Virus record (IMG/VR): IMGVR_UViG_3300035180_000678
DNA from: a virus
Taxonomy: Duplodnaviria; Heunggongvirae; Uroviricota; Caudoviricetes
Reading direction: 5' to 3' (one strand)
DNA length: 64,000 nt
Within the stretch, counting starts at the first letter, position 1. The number at the start of each line of letters is the position of its first letter. Made by a program: the position numbers and the translations under genes. This document shows, piece after piece, positions 4,249 through 58,915 of the stretch. The notes beneath the pieces are model-generated. The model was given only the letters and a program-made list of their open reading frames with translations. It made no database searches and was not told where the DNA came from.

Positions 4249-6044
4249 TGTCACCAGCCGAGAAATACGGCCTCGACCTCAGCTACGAACACAAGACCGC
4301 TTGCCCGCGTTGCCGTCGAAAAGGACGAGACAATGCGGGCAACAACCTCCACGTGTACGGCTCTGGACAAGGAGCCTATTGTTGGTCTTGCAACTTCACA
4401 ATCCCCTCTGACGAGCACATGGAGAAGATGGGATGGAACGAAGAAGAGGAAGACGAGGATGAAGAAGTGACTACCCGAGAACCCCTGACACAAGAACAAC
4501 ACGACGAAATCAAAAGCTACACGGGCCTGAAGGGTTACGGCTACCGTGGCATCCGGGATGAGACGAGCCGCTATTTCGGCGTTCGTTACCAGTACGACGA
4601 AGAGACTGGCAAGCCCATCAAGCAATTCGTCCCAACGACGGTAGACGGCAACATCGTCGGCTACCGTACTCGCGTTTTCCCCAAGGACTTTTCCAACCCC
4701 ATCGGTGTCGTGGGTAAGGAATGTGACATGATCGGCCAGTTCCGATTCAAGTCGGCCCGACGTGACTGCATCATCGTCGGCGGGGAGACGAAGCTTCTGA
4801 ACACGTACCAGATGCTCAAGGACTACAACGAGCAGCGAGGCAAGGACTACGATCCGCCTGCCGTGGTATGCTCCACTCTCGGGGAGTCCGGGGCGTGGAA
4901 GCAAGTCCAAGCGCAGTACGAGTTCTTCAACCAGTTCGAGCGTGTCATCGTCTGCATGGACCAAGACGAAGCCGGACACGAAGCCACTGAGAAAATCTGC
5001 AAGGTGTTGCCCAAGGGCAAGGCCCACGTCATGACCATGCGGTACAAGGACGCGGATGACTACGTGGTAGACAAGAGCGGTGCGCCTCTTGGCAGGGAGA
5101 AGGAGTTCATCAACGACTACTGGGGCTCGAAGCCCTATACGCCTGCGGGCATCGTTGGCTCCGGTGACCTGTCTGCACGGATGCGTTTGGAAGTGTCGGT
5201 CCCGAAGGTCACGTTCCCTGTGTTCATGCGTGAGGCGAACGAGATGACGGCCGGGGGCATGACCCTCAGCAGTATCGTCAACATCGGTGCAGCGTCGGGC
5301 CTCGGCAAGACGACGTGGGTGGATGAAATCGTCGAGCATCTGGCATTCAACAGCCCTCACCTCGTTGGTGTGGTGTCGATGGAAGCCACGGCTGGGCAGT
5401 ATGGCATCTCGATGTTGTCTCGGTACATCCGCTACAACATCAACAGCATCCAAGACCCTGCCGAGAAGCAGAAGTTTCTCGAACAGGACTGGGTGAAGGC
5501 GAAGGAAAAGGAACTGTTCTTCCGTGAGGATGGCAGTCACCGCTTCTACTTGGTGGACGACCGTGACGGAACGCTTGACGACCTCAAGGCTGTTGTGGAA
5601 CAATTGGTCGTTCAATGTAACGTCAAGGTGATCGTCCTCGACCCGCTGCAAGACATCCTCGATGGTTTGTCCATCGACGAGCAAGCGGTCTTCCTGAAGT
5701 GGCAGAAGAGTCTCAACAAGAGCCACGGGGTGTTGTTCATCAACATCAACCACGTCCGGAAGTCACAAGGTGGTGGACAGCAGAACAGCAGCGGTGCTAT
5801 GATTTCGGAAGAGGACTTTCAAGGTTCCTCCACGATCTTCAAGAGTGCTTCGCTGAACATCTTGCTGGTGCGTGACAAGATGGCAGAAGACCCCATCGAG
5901 CGCAACACCACCAAGGCTTACATCTCGAAGAATCGTATGAATGGTATCACCGGCCCGGCTGGGGAATACTACTACGAGAACAGCGAGAAGAAGATGTACC
6001 ACAAAGCCGACTGGATGGCCCAGCACGGTCCGAAAGACTTCTGA
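4248..6044 (+). CDS. T7 gp4-like bifunctional DNA primase/helicase
   Basis: N-terminal Zn ribbon CPRC...CWSC, TOPRIM acidic motif VIVCMDQDEAGHEA, DnaB/RecA-like Walker A GAASGLGKTT and Walker B VIVLDPLQ. 598 aa. Confidence 0.85.
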   Translation: MSPAEKYGLDLSYEHKTACPRCRRKGRDNAGNNLHVYGSGQGAYCWSCNFTIPSDEHMEKMGWNEEEEDEDEEVTTREPLTQEQHDEIKSYTGLKGYGYRGIRDETSRYFGVRYQYDEETGKPIKQFVPTTVDGNIVGYRTRVFPKDFSNPIGVVGKECDMIGQFRFKSARRDCIIVGGETKLLNTYQMLKDYNEQRGKDYDPPAVVCSTLGESGAWKQVQAQYEFFNQFERVIVCMDQDEAGHEATEKICKVLPKGKAHVMTMRYKDADDYVVDKSGAPLGREKEFINDYWGSKPYTPAGIVGSGDLSARMRLEVSVPKVTFPVFMREANEMTAGGMTLSSIVNIGAASGLGKTTWVDEIVEHLAFNSPHLVGVVSMEATAGQYGISMLSRYIRYNINSIQDPAEKQKFLEQDWVKAKEKELFFREDGSHRFYLVDDRDGTLDDLKAVVEQLVVQCNVKVIVLDPLQDILDGLSIDEQAVFLKWQKSLNKSHGVLFININHVRKSQGGGQQNSSGAMISEEDFQGSSTIFKSASLNILLVRDKMAEDPIERNTTKAYISKNRMNGITGPAGEYYYENSEKKMYHKADWMAQHGPKDF

Positions 6045-6053
6045 AAGGAGAAC

Positions 6054-6266
6054 ATGAGCACGCAACAAGAACTGAACCAGAAGATGTCCGCCCTCGTGGA
6101 TGCCATCAACACGGCTGTGGCGGAGGCGGAAGCCTTCGCTGACGAGCACGGTCTGGAATTCACCCTCGACATCGCCTACGGCATGGGCGGCACCTACGTC
6201 AGCGAGAAGGCTGCCGAAGGCTGGTCCTTTTCGGCTGGCTGGATGCCTTCGTCGCAGTCCTGCTAA
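6054..6266 (+). CDS. small hypothetical protein, C-terminal GWMPSSQSC
   Basis: 70-aa ORF with a GAAAGGAGAA SD. First of three tandem small genes sharing a W-x-SS-x-C C-terminus. Confidence 0.4.
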   Translation: MSTQQELNQKMSALVDAINTAVAEAEAFADEHGLEFTLDIAYGMGGTYVSEKAAEGWSFSAGWMPSSQSC

Positions 6267-7180: not shown

Positions 7181-8101
7181 ATGCTTATGATTGGCTCGAC
7201 TGCCATTGCTCACCATCTCGACCGAGAGCCTGCTGACCTTGACTTGGTCGGCACCTACGACGAGGCAGTTGCCTTTCGCAAAGTGTTCGGTGCCGTCTCC
7301 TTCTACCCCATCAACGACGGGAACAGCATCTTCATGCGCCGGGCATCGGGCCTCATCTGCGAAGTCGAAATCGCGTGGCCCGATTCCCGTGCCGAGCGTC
7401 TGCTGGCGTTCGTGAAGGAACACCCGGAGTCCGTCTACTCGTCAGGCTGGGCTGGAGTTCCGATGGACGCTGCCCGGAAGGATTTGGTGTACACCCTCAA
7501 GATGTCGCACCGCTTCCTGAAGAACAGCCCGCATTTCTGGAAGACGATGGCGGACATTCGTCTGCTGCGTGAGATGAACTGCACCATCCCGGAAGAGTGG
7601 ATGGAGTTCTATCGTCAGCGTGAGGTGGACACCTACACGTACAAGCACCCGAACCTCTCCGTGGGCAAGGGTGAGTTCTTCGACGCAACGATGACGGGCG
7701 TGATCCAGAAGTACGACCACGACACTGTGCATGAAGCCGTGGCGGTCTTCGACCGTCCCGCCTACACCTACTACCTTGACGGGCCGGTCAAGTGCAGCCG
7801 GGAACTGTTCGAGGCGCAGCCTGAAGCCATCCGCCTTGCTGGGGTGGTGGAAGAGGCAATGGTGCTGGCTCTCGAACGATCCCTCATCCCGTTTCCCGGT
7901 GGCAAGACGCCCGAAGAGGCGTTCCGTTTCGCTCTGATGAAGGTCTGCACCTCGATCACGAGCGGTTGGTTCCGGGACTACGCGTGGGAAAAGCACGACG
8001 CAGCCCTCAACTTTTTCCTTGAAAGTCAGCGTCTCCAGTGCTACACTGAACGCTTCAACGCCGCTCTGGAGGCTGGCGTGGTCAAGCTCAAGCAAGACTG
8101 A
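7181..8101 (+). CDS. nucleotidyltransferase-fold (Pol-beta superfamily) protein, function unknown
   Basis: N-terminal IGSTAIAHHLDREPADLDLVG matches the minimal NTase hG[GS]...D-h-D-h signature. 306 aa with a large C-terminal domain. Confidence 0.45.
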   Translation: MLMIGSTAIAHHLDREPADLDLVGTYDEAVAFRKVFGAVSFYPINDGNSIFMRRASGLICEVEIAWPDSRAERLLAFVKEHPESVYSSGWAGVPMDAARKDLVYTLKMSHRFLKNSPHFWKTMADIRLLREMNCTIPEEWMEFYRQREVDTYTYKHPNLSVGKGEFFDATMTGVIQKYDHDTVHEAVAVFDRPAYTYYLDGPVKCSRELFEAQPEAIRLAGVVEEAMVLALERSLIPFPGGKTPEEAFRFALMKVCTSITSGWFRDYAWEKHDAALNFFLESQRLQCYTERFNAALEAGVVKLKQD

Positions 8102-8117
8102 AAGACTCCCAACCTTA

Positions 8118-8564
8118 ATGAAAGGAACCCACCCCTTGCGCGATTTCTTCTTCGGCTCCCTGACGCGTGTCATCATCACCGTCCTGCTGTCCATCCTGCT
8201 GTTCGCTCTCGTCCTCAACGCGTGCTCGCCCGCCCCGCAATACGCCCCGCCCGTGGCGCAAGTGCAGCAAGGCCCGGTCGTCGCGGGTCAAGCCCCCGTG
8301 ATCGTCCAACAAGCCCCGCAACACGACGGCTTCATGTCGGGCTTCATGATGGGCCACCTCTTCAGCGGCGGCTATGGCTACCGTGCCCCGGTCGTCGTCC
8401 AACACACGATCATCGCTCCCACCGTGGTCCGTCCGACCTACGTGGCCCCGCGTGCCATCGTGCCGAGCTACACGCCCCGCCCCTCTGCGTGGACTAGCAC
8501 CAACAGCCGTGGCATCTCGACCACGACCAGCCGCTCGTCCATCTCGGTCGGTCGTCGCCGCTGA
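8118..8564 (+). CDS. Pro/Gly/Val-rich lipoprotein or membrane protein
   Basis: ATG at 8118. Hydrophobic N-terminus ending in lipobox-like LNAC, then a low-complexity Q/P/V-rich region. Confidence 0.45.
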   Translation: MKGTHPLRDFFFGSLTRVIITVLLSILLFALVLNACSPAPQYAPPVAQVQQGPVVAGQAPVIVQQAPQHDGFMSGFMMGHLFSGGYGYRAPVVVQHTIIAPTVVRPTYVAPRAIVPSYTPRPSAWTSTNSRGISTTTSRSSISVGRRR

Positions 8565-54354: not shown

Positions 54355-55833
54355 TTAACTTGTCAAGGGCAGTTGGCCGGGATGGTAAGGAATTTGACTA
54401 GGTTGTGTCAAATTCGGGACCGCGAAGTTGGGAAGGTTCAGTTGACGGGAGAGGGTGTTGAAGGCGTCGGACGTGGCGTCCACTTGGTCGTCCTTCTGTC
54501 CACGGATACCCTCGAACAGTTCAAGCTCCGTCAGCCAAGCCTCATTCCAATCCCCTCGGACGATCCGTACAAACCCCGATTCGGCAAGCGTACAAAAAGG
54601 GGAGAATCGTGCAAGCTTGCCAGAGTGCCCGGAGACGACAACCGAGGTTGCGTTCACACCGTTCTCAGCAAGGTGTCGAAGCTGAAAGGCGTTGGCAGTC
54701 TTGCCGCCAGCGCCGGGATCGCGAGGGATCGTCACCTTGCAATCCTCCAGTCCATCCGAGTAGGCAGTGGCTGCGAGTTCCTTGATGACCCCGTCCGCGA
54801 GCTTACGGAAGCGGTTCACGTCCTCTACGTAGTAGAATCCGTCCTTGGCACGGCTCATCTTGACACCCGCCGTCCAGTCAGGATCGCGGTTCGTCTCAGA
54901 TGGAACGGAAGCTGCCAAGTCCCACGAACGAACCCGGGAGATGGGGTTGTTGGGAGGGTAATCCACAATCTCCACCCATTCACGCCGGAAACGGCCAGAG
55001 CCTTCAGCACGTGCCGTCCACGAGCCGTGGAGGTAACGAAGCTGGTTGACGCGAGGCTGCGACAGCAGGTTGGCGAGATAGCCGGGATTGTTCTTCAGTA
55101 GGATGGGGTTGTCATACACCGTGAGCGGAATGAACCGGAAACTCTTGGGCATGAAGTTGATAGGGCCGTTCGCGGGATCGCGATTCATGCCGAACTTCGT
55201 GCCGTACTCTTGCCACAGTTCTTCTACGCTCTCACCCCAGTAAACCTTACCACTGACGTTGATGAACCAACGAACACGATCTTCGGTGCCGCCGATTGGG
55301 ATACCCGTAGCTTCGTCCAGTGAGAACTTGACCCACTCGTACAGGAAGGACTCCCGGGAGGGGTTGCACGTCAGGATGATGCTCAGGTGGCCCTTGTAAC
55401 GCACCGCACGAAGCCGGGAGATGAGGAAGAGGATTTCATCCTCAGTGAACTCAGCCGCTTCGTCAACGAGGATGTGACTGGCCTGAAGGCCCTGCCACTC
55501 ACTCACAGGTTCAGGGATCGGGGCGAACTGGATGCTCGCGCCGTTCGGGAAGACCCACGTCGATGTCTGAACGAGGAACTTACCCTTGAAGTGCTTGTAG
55601 ATGCCCTTCGATTCGTCAATCAGACCCCCCGGAAGCTTCAGCATAGGATAGGAACGACGGACGATGATGACCCGGGCTGCCGGGTCGTTGATGAACTTGA
55701 GCGCCTTTGTAAGACAGGTGTGCGACTTACCGCCGCCAGCCCCGCCGCCGCAAAGAAGCACGTCCGTGGTGTCGTCGGTTAGAATGAGTCGCTGCTTTTC
55801 GCTGCATGGCCCGAAGACGGGACGTTCACTCAT
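54355..55833 (-). CDS. terminase large subunit
   Basis: Walker A LCGGGAGGGKSH and Walker B-like ILVDEAAEF, with a C-terminal nuclease region. Start taken at MSERPVF with a GGAGG SD. Confidence 0.85.
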   Translation of the reverse strand: MSERPVFGPCSEKQRLILTDDTTDVLLCGGGAGGGKSHTCLTKALKFINDPAARVIIVRRSYPMLKLPGGLIDESKGIYKHFKGKFLVQTSTWVFPNGASIQFAPIPEPVSEWQGLQASHILVDEAAEFTEDEILFLISRLRAVRYKGHLSIILTCNPSRESFLYEWVKFSLDEATGIPIGGTEDRVRWFINVSGKVYWGESVEELWQEYGTKFGMNRDPANGPINFMPKSFRFIPLTVYDNPILLKNNPGYLANLLSQPRVNQLRYLHGSWTARAEGSGRFRREWVEIVDYPPNNPISRVRSWDLAASVPSETNRDPDWTAGVKMSRAKDGFYYVEDVNRFRKLADGVIKELAATAYSDGLEDCKVTIPRDPGAGGKTANAFQLRHLAENGVNATSVVVSGHSGKLARFSPFCTLAESGFVRIVRGDWNEAWLTELELFEGIRGQKDDQVDATSDAFNTLSRQLNLPNFAVPNLTQPSQIPYHPGQLPLTS

Positions 55834-55953
55834 GAAACCTCCAAAAGAAACACCCCGCGACGGCGAACCGGGCGGGGCGGAATACACTCACCACTGCACT
55901 CCAGACAAGGAGAAAGAAGAAACCGAAGTGCAGAGGAAAGGATACGTGAATGG

Positions 55954-56026
55954 TGGGGTGACCGTGGGAATCGAACCCGTCTGCCGAGGTCACAACTCGG
56001 AGTGCTCGCCATTACACTAGGGCCAC
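55954..56026 (-). tRNA. tRNA-His(GUG)-like (weak T stem)
   Basis: Anticodon arm ccgag-TTGTGAC-ctcgg (GUG). Discriminator C with encoded CCA. 6-bp acceptor. T loop TTCGATT but only 3 GC pairs plus two A.C mismatches in the T stem. Confidence 0.35.
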
Positions 56027-56036
56027 GACAGAAATC

Positions 56037-56113
56037 TGGTCAGGGTGGGTGGGCTCGAACCACCGGCCTCAAGCTTCCAAAGCTCGCCGTCTACCAACTG
56101 ACATTACACCCTG
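56037..56113 (-). tRNA. tRNA-Pro(UGG)
   Basis: Perfect 7-bp acceptor cagggtg/caccctg with encoded CCA. T arm ggtgg-TTCGAGC-ccacc. Anticodon loop tttggaa. Confidence 0.55.
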
Positions 56114-56118
56114 AAATC

Positions 56119-56206
56119 TGGCGGAAGAAGTAGGAGTCGAACCTACGGGGCGTTGCCGCCCGGGACGTTAGCACCGTCCTGCAATAGACCACTCTGCCAT
56201 TCTTCC
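56119..56206 (-). tRNA. tRNA-Ser(GCU), long variable arm
   Basis: 88 nt. Acceptor ggaagaa/ttcttcc with encoded CCA. T arm gtagg-TTCGACT-cctac. Anticodon arm ggacg-GTGCTAA-cgtcc. 17-nt variable hairpin. Confidence 0.6.
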
Positions 56207-56207
56207 T

Positions 56208-56283
56208 TGGCAAGCACCCACGGAATCGAACCGCGCCAGCAAGGTTTGGAGCCTCGCTCGCCAGCCTTGGAACATTGGCACCC
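56208..56283 (-). tRNA. tRNA-Trp(CCA) (acceptor with several GU pairs)
   Basis: Encoded CCA. T arm cgcgg-TTCGATT-ccgtg. Anticodon arm cgagg-CTCCAAA-ccttg. The acceptor pairing needs 4 wobble pairs, so the 5' boundary is uncertain. Confidence 0.4.
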
Positions 56284-56290
56284 GCTGAAT

Positions 56291-56367
56291 TGGTGGAGCC
56301 GGTGAGAATCGAACTCACCACAGGAAAGGTGCAAACCTTCCTCGCCGCCCTTGGCACATGCGACCCC
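56291..56367 (-). tRNA. tRNA-Ala(UGC)
   Basis: Encoded CCA. T arm gtgag-TTCGATT-ctcac. Anticodon arm ggaag-TTTGCAC-ctttc (one GU). Acceptor ggggtcg/cggctcc with 2 wobble pairs. Confidence 0.5.
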
Positions 56368-56375
56368 ATGAATTT

Positions 56376-56451
56376 TGGTGGACGGGGCTGGCTCTGCCCC
56401 AGCGACACCCGGATTTTCAATCCGGTGCTCTACTATCTGAGCTACCCGTCC
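56376..56451 (-). tRNA. tRNA-Phe(GAA) with non-canonical D and T loops
   Basis: All four stems are perfect WC: acceptor ggacggg/cccgtcc, D gctc/gagc, anticodon ccgga-TTGAAAA-tccgg, T gctgg/ccagc. Encoded CCA. The D loop AGATAGTA lacks GG and the T loop GGCAGAG lacks TTC. Confidence 0.55.
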
Positions 56452-56453
56452 GA

Positions 56454-56520
56454 GAGGTGGTGGCACAGTGTCTTTCGACCGAGGCCGGACTTACTAGCCT
56501 CTAACGTCCCCACCTTGAAA
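56454..56520 (-). ncRNA. unresolved tRNA-like segment
   Basis: Complementary ends aggtggt/cccacct and internal hairpins (gaggc-11 nt-gcctc), but no canonical T loop. Packed between two tRNAs. Confidence 0.2.
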
Positions 56521-56523
56521 ACT

Positions 56524-56610
56524 TGGTGCGTGCCCTAGGGATCGAACCTAGCATGGCCTAGAGGCCGGGAGGGTTACAGCCTCCTGTCCCACCTTTGGAA
56601 CATGACACGC
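56524..56610 (-). tRNA. tRNA-Tyr(GUA), long variable arm
   Basis: 87 nt. Encoded CCA. Acceptor gcgtgtc/ggcacgc (one GU). T arm ctagg-TTCGATC-cctag. Anticodon arm ggagg-CTGTAAC-cctcc. Variable hairpin ggcc-taga-ggcc. Confidence 0.6.
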
Positions 56611-56616
56611 GTATTT

Positions 56617-56695
56617 TGGCTCCGGAGGTTGGAATCGAACCAACCTAACCTCTGATTAACAGTCAGGCCCATGCACCTTGCTCGGGTTCACCGGA
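56617..56695 (-). tRNA. tRNA-Asn(GUU)
   Basis: Encoded CCA. T arm ggttgg-TTCGATT-ccaacc. 4-bp anticodon stem with loop CTGTTAA. Acceptor has one U.U mismatch. 11-nt D loop. Confidence 0.4.
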
Positions 56696-56704
56696 ATTGA
56701 TCTT

Positions 56705-56778
56705 TGGTCGGCCTCCACGGTATTGAACCGCATTCTACTGGGTAAGAGCCAGTTGCATCACCTTAATGCTTGAAACCG
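56705..56778 (-). tRNA. tRNA-Lys(CUU)
   Basis: Encoded CCA. T loop TTCAATA. Anticodon arm actgg-CTCTTAC-ccagt. D arm atgc-7 nt-gcat. Acceptor with 2 GU pairs. Confidence 0.5.
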
Positions 56779-56779
56779 A

Positions 56780-56855
56780 TGGCGCCCCGTGCCAGAATCG
56801 AACTGGCGGCTTCTCCCTAGACAGGGGAGCACTCTGACCGCTGAGTTAACGAGGC
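56780..56855 (-). tRNA. tRNA-Asp(GUC)
   Basis: Encoded CCA. T arm gccag-TTCGATT-ctggc. Anticodon arm ctccc-CTGTCTA-gggag (U at position 37). D arm actc/gagt. Acceptor gcctcgt/acggggc. Confidence 0.5.
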
Positions 56856-56862
56856 AAATGTT

Positions 56863-57105
56863 TGGACAGGGCTTTGCACCCCGATGGAGGTCACTTCGTA
56901 GGCCCGGTTGCCCGAACCCACGTCCTCTAAGATTGTCACCCGAGAAAGCCCTTTGCCTTGTACCCTCGCCGACCGAATCAGGCTCGGATGCGGGGAGAGC
57001 GTGCTACGCCTTTCCTCTGCGTACACTTCAATTCCGACTTTTCACTGCCGTGGTCCGTATGCATCGGTTTCCACAGCCACGTGTTTCTCGTTTCGGGCGA
57101 GTGAC
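56863..57105 (-). ncRNA. unresolved tRNA-like region (room for ~3 tRNAs)
   Basis: No ORF. CCA-complement tgg at 56863 and complementary 7-mers agggctt/aagccct 80 nt apart. Contains variable-arm-like hairpin ggtt-gcccg-aacc and several 5-bp hairpins. T loops are not canonical. Confidence 0.25.
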
Positions 57106-57110
57106 AAATT

Positions 57111-57187
57111 TGGCACCCTCAGCGAGAATCGAACTCGCATCCCCGGATTGAAAGTCCGGCGTCCTGAACCAGTTAGACGATGAGGGC
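57111..57187 (-). tRNA. tRNA-Glu(UUC)
   Basis: Encoded CCA. Perfect T arm gcgag-TTCGATT-ctcgc. Perfect anticodon arm ccgga-CTTTCAA-tccgg. Acceptor gccctca/tgagggt. Confidence 0.65.
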
Positions 57188-57193
57188 AAATCT

Positions 57194-57269
57194 TGGCAAG
57201 GGGTGTAGGACTCGAACCTACGACCAACGGGATCAAAACCCGTTGCTCTACCAACTGAGCTAACCCCCA
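57194..57269 (-). tRNA. tRNA-Gln(UUG)
   Basis: Encoded CCA. T arm gtagg-TTCGAGT-cctac. Anticodon arm acggg-TTTTGAT-cccgt. D arm gctc-AGTTGGTA-gagc. U1.U72 terminal mismatch. Confidence 0.6.
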
Positions 57270-57272
57270 ACT

Positions 57273-57363
57273 GAATTCGTGCCAGCAGTTAAGGTCCGCT
57301 GGTCAGGACCGACACAAGATTTTAACGTCGCTTGTTGAGACGCTTCCCACCCCATGAGAATTT
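57273..57363 (-). ncRNA. unresolved tRNA-like segment (91 nt)
   Basis: Exactly fills the gap between two tRNAs. Contains the ends gaattcg/agaattt and stable hairpins (ggtcc-8 nt-ggacc). No canonical T loop. Confidence 0.2.
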
Positions 57364-57439
57364 TGGTTGCCAGAACTGGACTCGAACCAGTGACCTAACG
57401 GTTATCGGCCGTTTGCTCTACCAACTGAGCTACCCGGCA
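57364..57439 (-). tRNA. tRNA-Ile(GAU) (C33 in anticodon loop)
   Basis: Encoded CCA. Perfect T arm actgg-TTCGAGT-ccagt. Anticodon arm aacgg-CCGATAA-ccgtt. D arm gctc-AGTTGGTA-gagc. Acceptor with 2 GU pairs. Confidence 0.55.
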
Positions 57440-57586
57440 AGGGTAAGTGGCATACCTGCCTATTCGCTGTGCTCCGCATCTCGTTTGAGCGAGGTCTACT
57501 CCACCGTCGCAGAGTTCTTCTCACACTGCTGTTTGGAGCCGCCGACGAACGAAGGGCACGAGATTGCACCACCCTTCAGTATGTCT
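57440..57586 (-). ncRNA. unresolved structured non-coding segment (possible degenerate tRNAs)
   Basis: 147 nt with no ORF, bounded by tRNAs. Contains hairpins ctcg-tttgag-cgag and aaggg-15 nt-ccctt. Confidence 0.15.
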
Positions 57587-57663
57587 TGGTTGCGGGAGCG
57601 GGATTTGAACCCACGACCTTCGGCTTATGAGGCCGACGCTCTACCAGACTGAGCTATCCCGCA
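57587..57663 (-). tRNA. tRNA-Met(CAU), elongator type (or Ile-lysidine)
   Basis: Encoded CCA. Perfect acceptor tgcggga/tcccgca. T loop TTCAAAT. Anticodon arm tcggc-CTCATAA-gccga. D arm gctc/gagc. Confidence 0.65.
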
Positions 57664-57671
57664 TTTGTTCT

Positions 57672-57758
57672 TGGTGCCCACCGCAGGACTCGAACCTGCA
57701 CGACCTTTCGGTCCCCGGCCTCTCAAGCCGGTCCGTCTACCAGTTTCGGCAGGCGGGC
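57672..57758 (-). tRNA. tRNA-Leu(GAG), long variable arm
   Basis: 87 nt. Encoded CCA. T arm gcagg-TTCGAGT-cctgc. Anticodon arm ccggc-TTGAGAG-gccgg. Variable hairpin gacc-tttc-ggtc. Acceptor with one GU. Confidence 0.6.
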
Positions 57759-57764
57759 GTAATA

Positions 57765-57840
57765 TGGTGCCCTAGGTCCAGAATCGAACTGACGACCTAC
57801 CGCTTACAAGGCGGTTGCTCTACCACTGAGCTACAAGGGC
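57765..57840 (-). tRNA. tRNA-Thr(UGU)
   Basis: Encoded CCA. T loop TTCGATT. Perfect anticodon arm accgc-CTTGTAA-gcggt. D arm gctc/gagc. Acceptor has one U.U mismatch and an extra nucleotide before the T stem. Confidence 0.5.
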
Positions 57841-58040
57841 AAGTGTTCGGTACGGCTGACCAGACGTTCCACGTTTCTCGGCTCATGACTTCCGTTCCAC
57901 GCGGCTGGCGACCTACGGATTATGAGTCCGTTGCTCTACTCGTACTAATCCCCTTCCGCTCAATCGAGGGAGGGTCTAGAATTCCCTCTCTTGCTTGAGA
58001 GGGATTTTCTGAGCCACTGAGCTACAACCGTGAAGCTATT
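57841..58040 (-). ncRNA. unresolved tRNA-like region, including a second CAU anticodon arm and a GTAGCTCAGTGG D-arm-like motif
   Basis: No ORF. CCA-complement at 57904-57906. Perfect hairpin acgga-CTCATAA-tccgt (57915-57931). A 6-7 bp hairpin with 7-nt loop at 57984-58004. Minus-strand sequence gtagctcagtgg near 58020. Confidence 0.2.
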
Positions 58041-58069
58041 GTAGCACGGAACGCTTGTTTGTCAAGCGT

Positions 58070-58915
58070 TTAGCCAATCAAAGTTGTTCGCCAGAAATGC
58101 ATACCGAGATTGTCGGTGTTGGCGGAGCCCGTGTTGTTGAACTTCACGCACTTCAGTTGAAGGCCGGTTGTCCGAACGTTCGGGCTCATGGAAGTCACAT
58201 CTGTGTAGCTGCCGACGTTCTGCACGCCGAACAACTGATAGGCGCGACCTGTGAACGTGGTGTCACCTGTGATGATCGTCTGACCGTCCGCAGGAGCTTC
58301 CGCAGCAGCACCAGCAGCTGAGAACGAAGCACCGAACATGAATTGACTGTTCGCCATGACGCCAGCCAAAAGGCCCGCGCTGCTGGTCGTGCCAGCAATC
58401 CGCTTGCTCAGAAGCTCATGTCGAAGAATCGAACCGCTCTGAATGATGTTCGGACCAATGGTCGGAACAGCACCGGCAGCGTGCGTGATGTCCGTAGAGC
58501 CAAGGTTGGCGACAGAACCGGCACCAGACGAGCCCCAAGGGGTTGCAGCAGTGGCGTAAATCTCAACGAGGACGACCGACATGCCCGGAGCGGGAACCCA
58601 TCGCGTGCCGTTGGAACGGAGACGCCCACCGACGTTAGTGTAGCTGGTATCTCCCGGCATCGCACGGACGCCAAGGTCAGTCAGGAACACCGTCGCGCCT
58701 GTTCGGACATCTGTTGCCGCAGGACAGTTCGCCATGACACCTGTGAAGCTGTCACCGAGCGGAACCCACACCGCACCTGTTTCACCGTAGGTGGCCCGCC
58801 ATGCACAGATTTGAGGCTGTGGGCCTCGTTCCGCACAGAGCAGGATTTCCCCGATCATATCACTTGCAGGAGGCAGCGCAAGGCTGCTTTCATAAATTTC
58901 TTGTGAAGGCTTCAT
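58070..58915 (-). CDS. hypothetical structural (fiber-like) protein
   Basis: Internal ATG (MKPSQEIYESS) overlaps the upstream stop (TAATGA). Ala/Gly/Thr/Ser-rich 281 aa. Confidence 0.4.
   Translation of the reverse strand: MKPSQEIYESSLALPPASDMIGEILLCAERGPQPQICAWRATYGETGAVWVPLGDSFTGVMANCPAATDVRTGATVFLTDLGVRAMPGDTSYTNVGGRLRSNGTRWVPAPGMSVVLVEIYATAATPWGSSGAGSVANLGSTDITHAAGAVPTIGPNIIQSGSILRHELLSKRIAGTTSSAGLLAGVMANSQFMFGASFSAAGAAAEAPADGQTIITGDTTFTGRAYQLFGVQNVGSYTDVTSMSPNVRTTGLQLKCVKFNNTGSANTDNLGMHFWRTTLIG

Follow-up and report, generated by a model that had tools for sequence, protein, structure and literature searches.

The 64,000-nucleotide (nt) stretch of viral DNA analyzed here (the window; IMG/VR record IMGVR_UViG_3300035180_000678, Caudoviricetes) carries, between positions 55,954 and 58,040 of its minus strand, a dense island of transfer RNA (tRNA) genes. 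This region probably forms a single transcription unit of a lytic phage, comprising 16 tRNAs (several of which have non-standard but compensated cores), at least two structured RNAs that are not tRNAs, and a gene derived from a tRNA(CAU); the co-transcription, processing, and stability of these RNAs are what we infer. The island itself is ordinary. What is new, as judged from sequence comparison, is that at least two of the gaps left between the tRNAs in a preliminary description of the region are occupied by structured RNAs belonging to conserved families that Rfam does not contain.

The 16 tRNA genes lie on the minus strand between a near-consensus sigma-70 promoter and a terminator located just upstream of TerL, as follows:

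58038..58065, minus strand: sigma-70-type promoter, extended by a TG at −10 (TTGACA-16 nt-TACAAT), agreeing with the consensus at 11 of 12 positions.
55843..55877, minus strand: intrinsic terminator, CCCCGC..GCGGGG then UGUUUCUUUU (U-run), read in the sequence; a terminator scan gave a partial match.
54355..55833, minus strand: TerL, the first gene downstream of the island (PHROG 979, E 4e-151), with its start codon at 55833.

Three promoter-like sites were found against 0.8 expected from shuffles, and the predicted transcription start, at about 58031, coincides with base 1 of the acceptor stem of the first RNA gene (G0, described below). Two IMG/VR contigs, L001 and L002, encode a TerL that is 74% identical to that of the window, and both carry a tRNA array directly upstream of it. 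The layout of L002 is the same as that of the window, with a promoter, a tRNA array containing both RNA families, a terminator, and TerL.

The preliminary description had counted about 20 tRNA genes, 16 of them folded by hand, and by implication had treated five segments among them, said to be of tRNA length, as additional, stranger tRNAs. We ran ARAGORN in default, relaxed, intron, and pseudogene modes, together with the Rfam RF00005 covariance model (gathering threshold 29 bits), and the calls gave exactly the 16 identities folded by hand: 14 were found by ARAGORN by default, the relaxed mode added tRNA-Ala, and RF00005 added tRNA-Phe. The gaps remaining after these 16 tRNAs were 58031-57841, 57586-57440, 57363-57270, 57110-56856, and 56523-56452. 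They stayed uncalled under every setting, with no tRNA found in any of them by ARAGORN, intron and pseudogene modes included, or by RF00005 at E up to 10. A refolding of the gaps into canonical tRNAs, the result by which the preliminary description would have been refuted, did not occur even at shifted boundaries. The earlier picture of the gaps had to be revised. The gaps range from 72 to 255 nt, so that tRNA length fits only two of them, and their contents are of several kinds: two gaps hold families that are not tRNAs, one holds a tRNA-derived gene disrupted by inserts, and three segments are without tRNA signal. Small open reading frames were rejected as gap content, since every minus-strand frame there overlaps tRNAs and compensatory changes point to RNA. 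The fold z-scores of the gaps (−0.65 to −2.1) were uninformative for most of them; the evidence for structure is comparative. The two families are represented in the window by the following elements:

56933..57106, minus strand: family A structured RNA, 174 nt, three-way junction (model R1, 38.7 bits, E 3.8e-6, full length, model positions 1-130).
57465..57580, minus strand: family B structured RNA, about 115 nt (model R3, 36.2 bits, E 2.1e-7, full length, model positions 1-113).

Family A came to light in the 255-nt gap between tRNA-Glu and tRNA-Asp, where GAGAAACAC, a hairpin, and GUGAAAAGUCGGAAUU recur as blocks also present in a gap of L002. A pattern derived from these shared blocks matched 10 viral contigs, nearly all beside tRNAs, and a second pattern, built on the 3' block, extended the set to about 30 contigs. 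The predicted fold has a terminal helix P1 and a 3-bp helix P2, which closes a three-way junction with the hairpin P3 and a 7-bp helix P5. The joiners GAGAAA, AAAAGUCGGAA, and GGYAAA are highly conserved, and all three are found in the window copy together with all of the helices. In that copy, P1 pairs 57106-57098 with 56942-56934, P2 is CCC/GGG, joiner J2/3 (..GAGAAA) extends to 57084, the P3 hairpin covers 57083-57043, joiner J3/5 (AAAAGUCGGAA) covers 57042-57032, the P5 domain, which is expanded, covers 57031-56958, and joiner J5/2 (GGCAAA) covers 56957-56952. Model R1 was built from six IMG/VR sequences with the window excluded, and a rebuilt model, R2, whose seed alignment includes the window sequence, scored the window copy at 53.6 bits.

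The search for family A gave 31 hits representing 19 distinct sequences. In an alignment of these 19, which was fitted to the model and hence favors the structure, 95.1% of the cells were paired and 27 of the 33 pairs were changed on both sides. When the partners were slid by one to three columns, only 39-51% of the cells were paired and 7-11 pairs were double-changed, and none of 500 shuffles reached the observed values. At least seven lineages have unrelated P1 sequences, and P1 is paired in all of them. In 24 of the 31 hits, the element shares the strand of the tRNAs, following one of them at 1-2 nt and preceding another at 3-4 nt, and family A therefore occupies a tRNA slot. The window copy starts 4 nt after tRNA-Glu and has 14 same-strand tRNAs within 2.5 kb; its downstream side differs, with tRNA-Asp 77 nt away and another segment, G3b, between the two.

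No match to family A was obtained in Rfam 15 at E up to 10, either in the window or around the copies of contigs L037 and L038. An unannotated copy was detected in the cultured Synechococcus phage S-CBWM1 (NC_048106 19702-19837; L046 2451-2586) at 74-97 bits (74 with R1). It lies in a 323-nt gap between tRNA-Gly and tRNA-Asn, and its 5' domain differs (GAGUUCGGCGAAACACCGGAAUU). BLAST searches of cultured phages returned nothing for the window copy or the L038 copy, and only an L037-type query found S-CBWM1. Six pattern hits in bacterial genomes were attributed to chance, none being recovered by the models, and a scan for AAAAGTCGGAAYT..AAGGYAAA added only chance matches in coding DNA (L047-L049).

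Family B was recognized in the 147-nt gap between tRNA-Met and tRNA-Ile, which has two invariant blocks in common with L002, GGUGSGCAAUCUCGUGCC and UCAAACGAGAUGCGG. In the window copy, a hairpin at 57577-57551 carries a 15-nt loop, UGGUGCAAUCUCGUG, that is predicted to pair with ACGAGAUGCG (57484-57475); a conserved single-stranded YAACAGC is located at 57534-57528, and the middle hairpin is variable. The family blocks UGGYGCAAUCUCGUG, YAACAGC, and AAACGAGAUGCGG are all present in the window copy. A pattern scan located the two blocks shared with L002 in the tRNA arrays of phage contigs of 61-314 kb (L079-L082) as well. The first of these two blocks is the hairpin loop, and RNAalifold predicted that this loop and the second block form a 10-bp long-range helix. 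The hairpin enclosing the loop differs between four lineages and was seen, by eye, to be paired in each of them (GAAGGG/CCCUUC, AAGCGG/CCGCUU, GAGG/CCUC, and GUGUGG/CCACAC). All true members of family B lie in tRNA arrays, and the family is rarer than family A. Model R3, built without the window, recovered no further member from 490 kb of phage arrays, and BLAST of the L080 copy against cultured phages returned nothing. The family has no match in Rfam. Scan matches in L077, L078, and L083-L085 were without tRNAs and were discarded as chance. An obligate co-occurrence of the two families was also dismissed, as A and B are found together only in the window and L002. The 314-kb contig carrying family B (L082) also has a transfer-messenger RNA (tmRNA) inside its tRNA array, at 5061-5464.

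The remaining gap sequence was divided into four segments:

57851..58031, minus strand: G0, tRNA(CAU)-derived gene, 181 nt, read in the sequence, with the 3' end ACCGA in place of ACCA; the acceptor stem closes in the fold (z = −2.09).
57270..57363, minus strand: G2, uncalled segment of 94 nt with two hairpins and the 3' end CACGA (fold z = −0.67); no tRNA or Rfam match.
56856..56932, minus strand: G3b, uncalled segment of 77 nt with a long hairpin and a 3' hairpin, GGGG-UGCAAAG-CCCU, then GUCCA; no tRNA or Rfam match.
56452..56523, minus strand: G4, uncalled segment of 72 nt with complementary ends GGUGG../..CCACC (fold z = −1.14); no tRNA or Rfam match.

In G0, the 7-bp acceptor stem (ACGGUUG/CAGCCGU), the D stem, the anticodon arm (loop CUCAUAA), the variable loop, and the T stem are intact. 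The D loop contains an insert of 74 nt (58013-57940) with two hairpins, and the T loop an insert of 41 nt (57904-57864). Neither ARAGORN with its intron and pseudogene options nor the Rfam tRNA model called this gene, and no second interrupted D arm was found in the fetched loci (860 kb of phage tRNA arrays), where G0 is the sole case. The inserts are not mobile repeats, as judged by the lack of a second copy in the window or in any fetched locus. G4 contains a GAAA hairpin as well as one whose loop is 9-11 nt long, and has neither a D arm nor a T arm, while the 3' hairpin of G3b resembles a T arm of the G55 class described below. No homologues of G2, G3b, or G4 were found, whether in the remainder of the window or in the related loci, which total 860 kb.

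Several observations were made beside these segments. G0 (57851-57847), G2 (57274-57270), and an element of L002 (about 8118-8122) end in ACCGA or CACGA, and the neighboring tRNAs in ACCA or CACCA. L002 contains, at 7941-8122 between tRNA-Thr and tRNA-Leu near the start of its array, a 182-nt multibranched RNA with a long 5'/3' closing stem (z = −3.1; none of 200 shuffles was as stable), which is like G0 in size and place and is not alignable to it. On the plus strand, opposite the first hairpin of the G0 D-loop insert, 57983-58004 forms a terminator-like hairpin followed by TTTTCT; it could act as a stop for antisense transcription into the island.

Archaeal tRNAs carry introns at non-canonical positions, and YrlA is a tRNA-like scaffold. 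G0 resembles both in having a tRNA framework with extra sequence in the D or T loops or with an arm replaced by another domain. It would be conceivable that G0 is a functional tRNA(CAU) gene whose two intervening sequences are removed or tolerated, as a counterpart, in a virus of bacteria, of the archaeal introns. The cloverleaf has kept all its helices, the pairing of the acceptor stem spans 181 nt, the inserts lie exactly in two loops and fold into hairpins of their own, and G0 is the first gene after the promoter, with the predicted start at acceptor position 1. Even so, we regard this as very unlikely. Unlike in the archaeal introns, inspection of the junctions by eye showed no bulge-helix-bulge, group I and group II introns are far larger than the inserts, no intron family of Rfam matches them, simple excision would leave no canonical T-loop sequence, the 860 kb of arrays contain no other example, and the island already has an intact tRNA-Met(CAT). 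To our knowledge, no bacterial splicing machinery is known for introns of the archaeal non-canonical type. As for YrlA, its Rfam model gave only 25 bits, in a match that fell on ordinary tRNAs elsewhere in the island. G0 may be a pseudogene or a scaffold, or else its inserts may be removable.

A more general objection is that the gaps hold only decayed tRNA pseudogenes and spacers, the island being an ordinary cluster with eroded genes. G0 is clearly derived from a tRNA and disrupted; G2, G3b, and G4 are without homologues and have ordinary folding energies (z between −0.7 and −1.1); G3b ends in a hairpin similar to a T arm, and G4 has complementary ends like those of an acceptor stem. In addition, weak genes occur among the called tRNAs too, for example His, Ala, and Trp. 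The comparative data contradict decay in the case of families A and B. These families are conserved across phages whose TerL proteins share at most about 40% identity or nothing detectable. Both have invariant single-stranded blocks, to which are added the compensatory changes in family A, and neither is cloverleaf-like or matched by RF00005 at E up to 10. Furthermore, free decay would not be expected to leave G0 with an acceptor stem that, over a distance of 180 nt, still pairs perfectly. As an account of the gaps as a whole, decay is in our view rather unlikely.

Under the preferred reading, that of one transcription unit with embedded structured RNAs, the island would be transcribed as a single precursor in which families A and B accompany the tRNAs, and both would be freed through tRNA end processing by host enzymes. 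On one side the cut would be made by RNase P, where the next tRNA has its 5' end; the other side would be freed by the 3' maturation of the previous tRNA. By pairing both ends, helix P1 of family A may protect the released RNA and yield a stable small RNA.

The closest precedent is the tRNA operon of T4, whose species 1 and 2 RNAs would be mirrored by families A and B in tRNA slots. In the T4 record, rnaC (139 nt) and rnaD (119 nt) are annotated directly after tRNA-Arg; both are expressed RNAs of unknown function (PMC9697503). The likeness lies in the presence of 120-140-nt RNAs that are not tRNAs, arranged head to tail with tRNAs in one phage operon and released with them. The T4 RNAs differ in having tRNA-like 3' parts, which are not found in families A and B. 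GOLLD and ROOL are also structured RNAs of unknown function, encoded by phages or prophages and often near tRNA islands (PMC12286853). They are of 580-800 nt or more, against 115-175 nt for families A and B, with unrelated folds and Rfam models of their own that find no match here, and family A differs from them in lying precisely inside the array at tRNA-like spacing.

The resemblance to T4 also extends to sequence. The rnaD gene (NC_000866 71053-71171; L086 2554-2672) starts with AAUGAGAAACCGG-GUCGCUA-CCGGUAAGUCGUCGGA, similar to GAUAUGAGAAA-hairpin-AAAAGUCGGAA in family A, and the two RNAs have the short motif AUGAGAAAC-hairpin-AAGUCG in common. Family A might on this basis be a homologue of rnaD, as the AAUGAGAAACCGG-loop-CCGGUAAGUCGUCGGA start recalls GAUAUGAGAAA-CAC..GUG-AAAAGUCGGAA, or else be related, as a minimal form, to the catalytic core found in RNase P RNA. 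In the bacterial version of that RNA, helix P3 is followed by GAGGAAAGUCCGG. In family A the block GUGAAAAGUCGGAA likewise follows a hairpin, and the order P1-P2-P3-joiner is similar. We hold both relationships to be extremely improbable. With filters off, R1 gave only 3.4 bits on rnaD and no significant match on rnaC, R2 gave nothing on either, and rnaD is without the closing strands of the P1 and P2 helices, which points to a resemblance and not to membership. For RNase P, no family matched in Rfam at E up to 10, the likeness of AAAAGUCGG to the CR-I block failed, AAAGUC is not constant at its G, where C and A also occur, and the family alignment contains no conserved P4 partner for GUCGG, the candidate CCGAU being lost in L040, L042, and L038.

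Self-cleavage was considered for both families. The theta ribozymes of gut phages, which are hepatitis delta virus (HDV)-like, cleave at a site no more than 5 nt away from the 3' end of a tRNA and have been proposed to act in tRNA maturation (PMC10879173). Like these small structured RNAs, family A lies within a few nucleotides of a phage tRNA end, starting in most arrays 1-2 nt after the upstream tRNA, which is the position of theta ribozymes (PMC10879173). Conservation is highest in its joiners, which are purine-rich, unpaired, and placed at a three-way junction, as in the cores of small ribozymes, and the predicted hairpin-loop pseudoknot of family B has a topology known from pistol ribozymes. 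Family A, family B, or both could therefore be candidates for new self-cleaving ribozymes that cut the precursor beside tRNA ends. Several results make this quite improbable. HDV-like/theta, hammerhead, twister, twister-sister, pistol, hatchet, and hairpin ribozymes, as well as GOLLD and ROOL, gave no Rfam 15 match at E up to 10 in 55800-58200 or around the L037 and L038 copies of family A. Theta ribozymes have an HDV double-pseudoknot fold and proven self-cleavage, whereas in family A a terminal helix closes a three-way junction, and the pairing of both termini in P1 is better suited to a stable RNA set free from the precursor than to a fold of the 5'-cleaving HDV type. Moreover, all the tRNAs of the window encode CCA, and host enzymes would be enough for their processing.

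Some of our data weigh against a unit made of tRNAs and released stable RNAs. G0, G2, G3b, and G4 are explained by it only as transcribed spacers or decayed genes. The family A copies of the window and of L002 carry large insertions in the P5 domain, and the L002 copy reached only 11.8-19.8 bits and was assigned by eye. Family A could also act in cis, as a self-cleaving or processing element. Family B consists of only four distinct sequences, and its long-range helix is invariant, apart from one one-sided change, and is without covariation support.

The 16 tRNAs of the island are listed below in the order of their transcription:

57765..57840, minus strand: tRNA-Thr(TGT); ARAGORN, Rfam 63.4 bits.
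57672..57758, minus strand: tRNA-Leu(GAG); ARAGORN, Rfam 46.5 bits.
57587..57663, minus strand: tRNA-Met(CAT); ARAGORN, Rfam 74.7 bits.
57364..57439, minus strand: tRNA-Ile(GAT), C33, anticodon loop CCGAUAA; ARAGORN, Rfam 63.9 bits.
57194..57269, minus strand: tRNA-Gln(TTG); ARAGORN, Rfam 65.4 bits.
57111..57187, minus strand: tRNA-Glu(TTC); ARAGORN, Rfam 63.5 bits.
56780..56855, minus strand: tRNA-Asp(GTC), U37, anticodon loop CUGUCUA; ARAGORN, Rfam 59.5 bits.
56705..56778, minus strand: tRNA-Lys(CTT), A8, weak T stem; ARAGORN, Rfam 39.7 bits.
56617..56695, minus strand: tRNA-Asn(GTT), A8, long variable region; ARAGORN, Rfam 32.4 bits.
56524..56610, minus strand: tRNA-Tyr(GTA), class II, 3-nt spacer between acceptor and D stem; ARAGORN, no Rfam match.
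56376..56451, minus strand: tRNA-Phe(GAA), D loop AGAUAGUA (A18, G19), T loop GGCAGAG (G54, G55, C56, G58); missed by ARAGORN, Rfam 54.9 bits (match spanning 56379-56451).
56291..56367, minus strand: tRNA-Ala(TGC), CAUG spacer, 3-bp D stem, 4-bp T stem; ARAGORN relaxed mode only, Rfam tRNA-Sec model 21.6 bits.
56208..56283, minus strand: tRNA-Trp(CCA), AAUG spacer, weak D stem; ARAGORN, below the Rfam threshold.
56119..56206, minus strand: tRNA-Ser(GCT); ARAGORN, Rfam 47 bits.
56037..56113, minus strand: tRNA-Pro(TGG); ARAGORN, Rfam 53.2 bits.
55955..56027, minus strand: tRNA-His(GTG)-like, 3-bp T stem, without an encoded G-1, 3' end CCCACCA; ARAGORN, Rfam 33.5 bits.

The 14 tRNAs called by ARAGORN by default (His, Pro, Ser, Trp, Tyr, Asn, Lys, Asp, Glu, Gln, Ile, Met, Leu, and Thr) extend over 55955-57840, with spacers of 1-9 nt inside runs. 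RF00005 passed 13 of the 16, at 32.4-74.7 bits; Trp and Ala fell below 29 bits, and Tyr was not matched by this model at all, Tyr and Trp being called by ARAGORN by default and Ala only in the relaxed mode (-ps). The island has no tRNA for Gly, Val, Arg, or Cys. Its 16 tRNAs share with the canonical tRNA (RF00005) the cloverleaf, the 7-nt anticodon loops, and, as in many phage clusters of enterobacteria and Pseudomonas, an encoded CCA end, which the preliminary description had noted for most of them and which is present in all. They differ from it in several points. For some of them the preliminary description had read 4 nt between acceptor and D stem, A8, U37, or C33; we found a spacing of 3 or 4 nt in Trp, Ala, Tyr, and His, with an extra 1-2 nt before a short D stem in Tyr, Trp, and Ala; A8 in Lys and Asn; U37 in Asp; and C33 in Ile. 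The lack of G-1 and the 3-bp T stem of His, and A18/G55 with G54/G58 in Phe, are further departures.

Trp, Ala, and Tyr share an unusual D region, (A)AUG-UKCCAAGG. The Trp copies of L001, L004, and L009 are 79-82% identical to that of the window, and the unusual form is thus kept in distant relatives, which speaks for function over decay. Another non-canonical gene, resembling tRNA-Gly(UCC) (GCGGG...GCCUUCCAAGC...CCCGCUCCA), was noticed in L002 (8457-8530), L001 (about 6180-6262), and L038 (4849-4917). ARAGORN misses the L001 and L002 copies, the L038 copy scored 32.6 bits, and the window has no copy.

The preliminary description had reported that tRNA-Phe has perfect stems, a D loop AGATAGTA, and a T loop GGCAGAG, and had interpreted the absence of the D-loop GG and the T-loop TTC as a coupled loss. 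The stems and loops were confirmed (fold z = −4.65). When tested for the elbow pairs G18-psi55 and G19-C56, which correspond to GG and UUC, this tRNA failed: A18/G55 was found instead, with G19/C56 kept. We then surveyed 401 distinct tRNAs parsed from all the fetched phage loci plus the window. All nine tRNAs with an NGC T loop (G55) were without the D-loop GG, and seven of the nine had AG, whereas only 8 of 371 tRNAs with U55 and C56 were without GG (Fisher p 6e-14), which supports the coupling. A UUU T loop (U56) was accompanied by GA in five of five cases and a UUA T loop (A56) by GU in five of five; taken together, these two groups were without GG in 10 of 10 cases, compared with 8 of 357 with UUC (p 4e-15). 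One surveyed tRNA had A54/U58 replacing U54/A58. The association of the D loop with the T loop across the 401 tRNAs therefore indicates that changes in the elbow pairs G18-psi55 and G19-C56 are matched by compensating ones. From this comparison, the loop change of tRNA-Phe is a member of a recurrent compensated class, A18/G55, and is not decay. The closest relatives of the tRNA-Phe of the window have canonical loops.

The phage setting of the island was also analyzed. The preliminary description had placed it between TerL and structural genes. TerL was confirmed, together with the portal and the head protease downstream of it (PHROG), but PHROG gave nothing for the open reading frames upstream of the island. 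The identity of this TerL to terminases of Pseudomonas phages is about 42%. The other genes of the window encode a primase/helicase, a helicase, a ribonucleotide reductase, a thymidylate synthase, an exonuclease, and tail proteins, a content from which we conclude that the DNA belongs to a lytic tailed phage. A megablast of the island against 50,697 phage records returned matches to single tRNAs only and no close cultured relative. A metagenome scan with TerL found no close relatives, and only L001 and L002 reach 74% TerL identity in IMG/VR. A tmRNA was excluded, as ARAGORN found none in the window or, at a relaxed threshold, in the island, and the sole Rfam match was a 14-bit chance match. 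In L001, a large gap in the tRNA array (about 5190-5580) contains what appears by eye to be a small HNH-type endonuclease, with the motifs CGSRDRLELDH..CYTCH; homing endonucleases are also found within the tRNA clusters of T4 and S-CBWM1.

The swaps at the tRNA elbow (A18/G55, A19/U56, and U19/A56) bear on the recognition of such tRNAs by RNase P and the ribosome, and also by modification enzymes and by nucleases directed against phages. Families A and B belong to a known kind, RNAs other than tRNAs that are carried within the tRNA operons of phages, and a demonstrated function or catalysis would raise their interest. A bolder proposal, tentative and in our judgment unlikely, is that they represent two new functional classes of phage RNA riding in tRNA slots, either as ribozymes or as tRNA-shaped decoys or cofactors acting on host enzymes of tRNA processing or of tRNA-targeting defence, with G0 as a deliberately expanded scaffold. 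If this were true, the tRNA arrays of phages would serve as general cassettes that deliver small structured RNAs, their release being brought about by tRNA punctuation. Phage tRNA clusters are usually annotated tRNA by tRNA, and their gaps are ignored. With its presence in about 30 viral contigs and a cultured cyanophage, family A provides a concrete, testable case for the puzzle posed by the non-tRNA RNAs of T4, and the two families suggest that tRNA-processing enzymes may serve as a general release system for other small RNAs.

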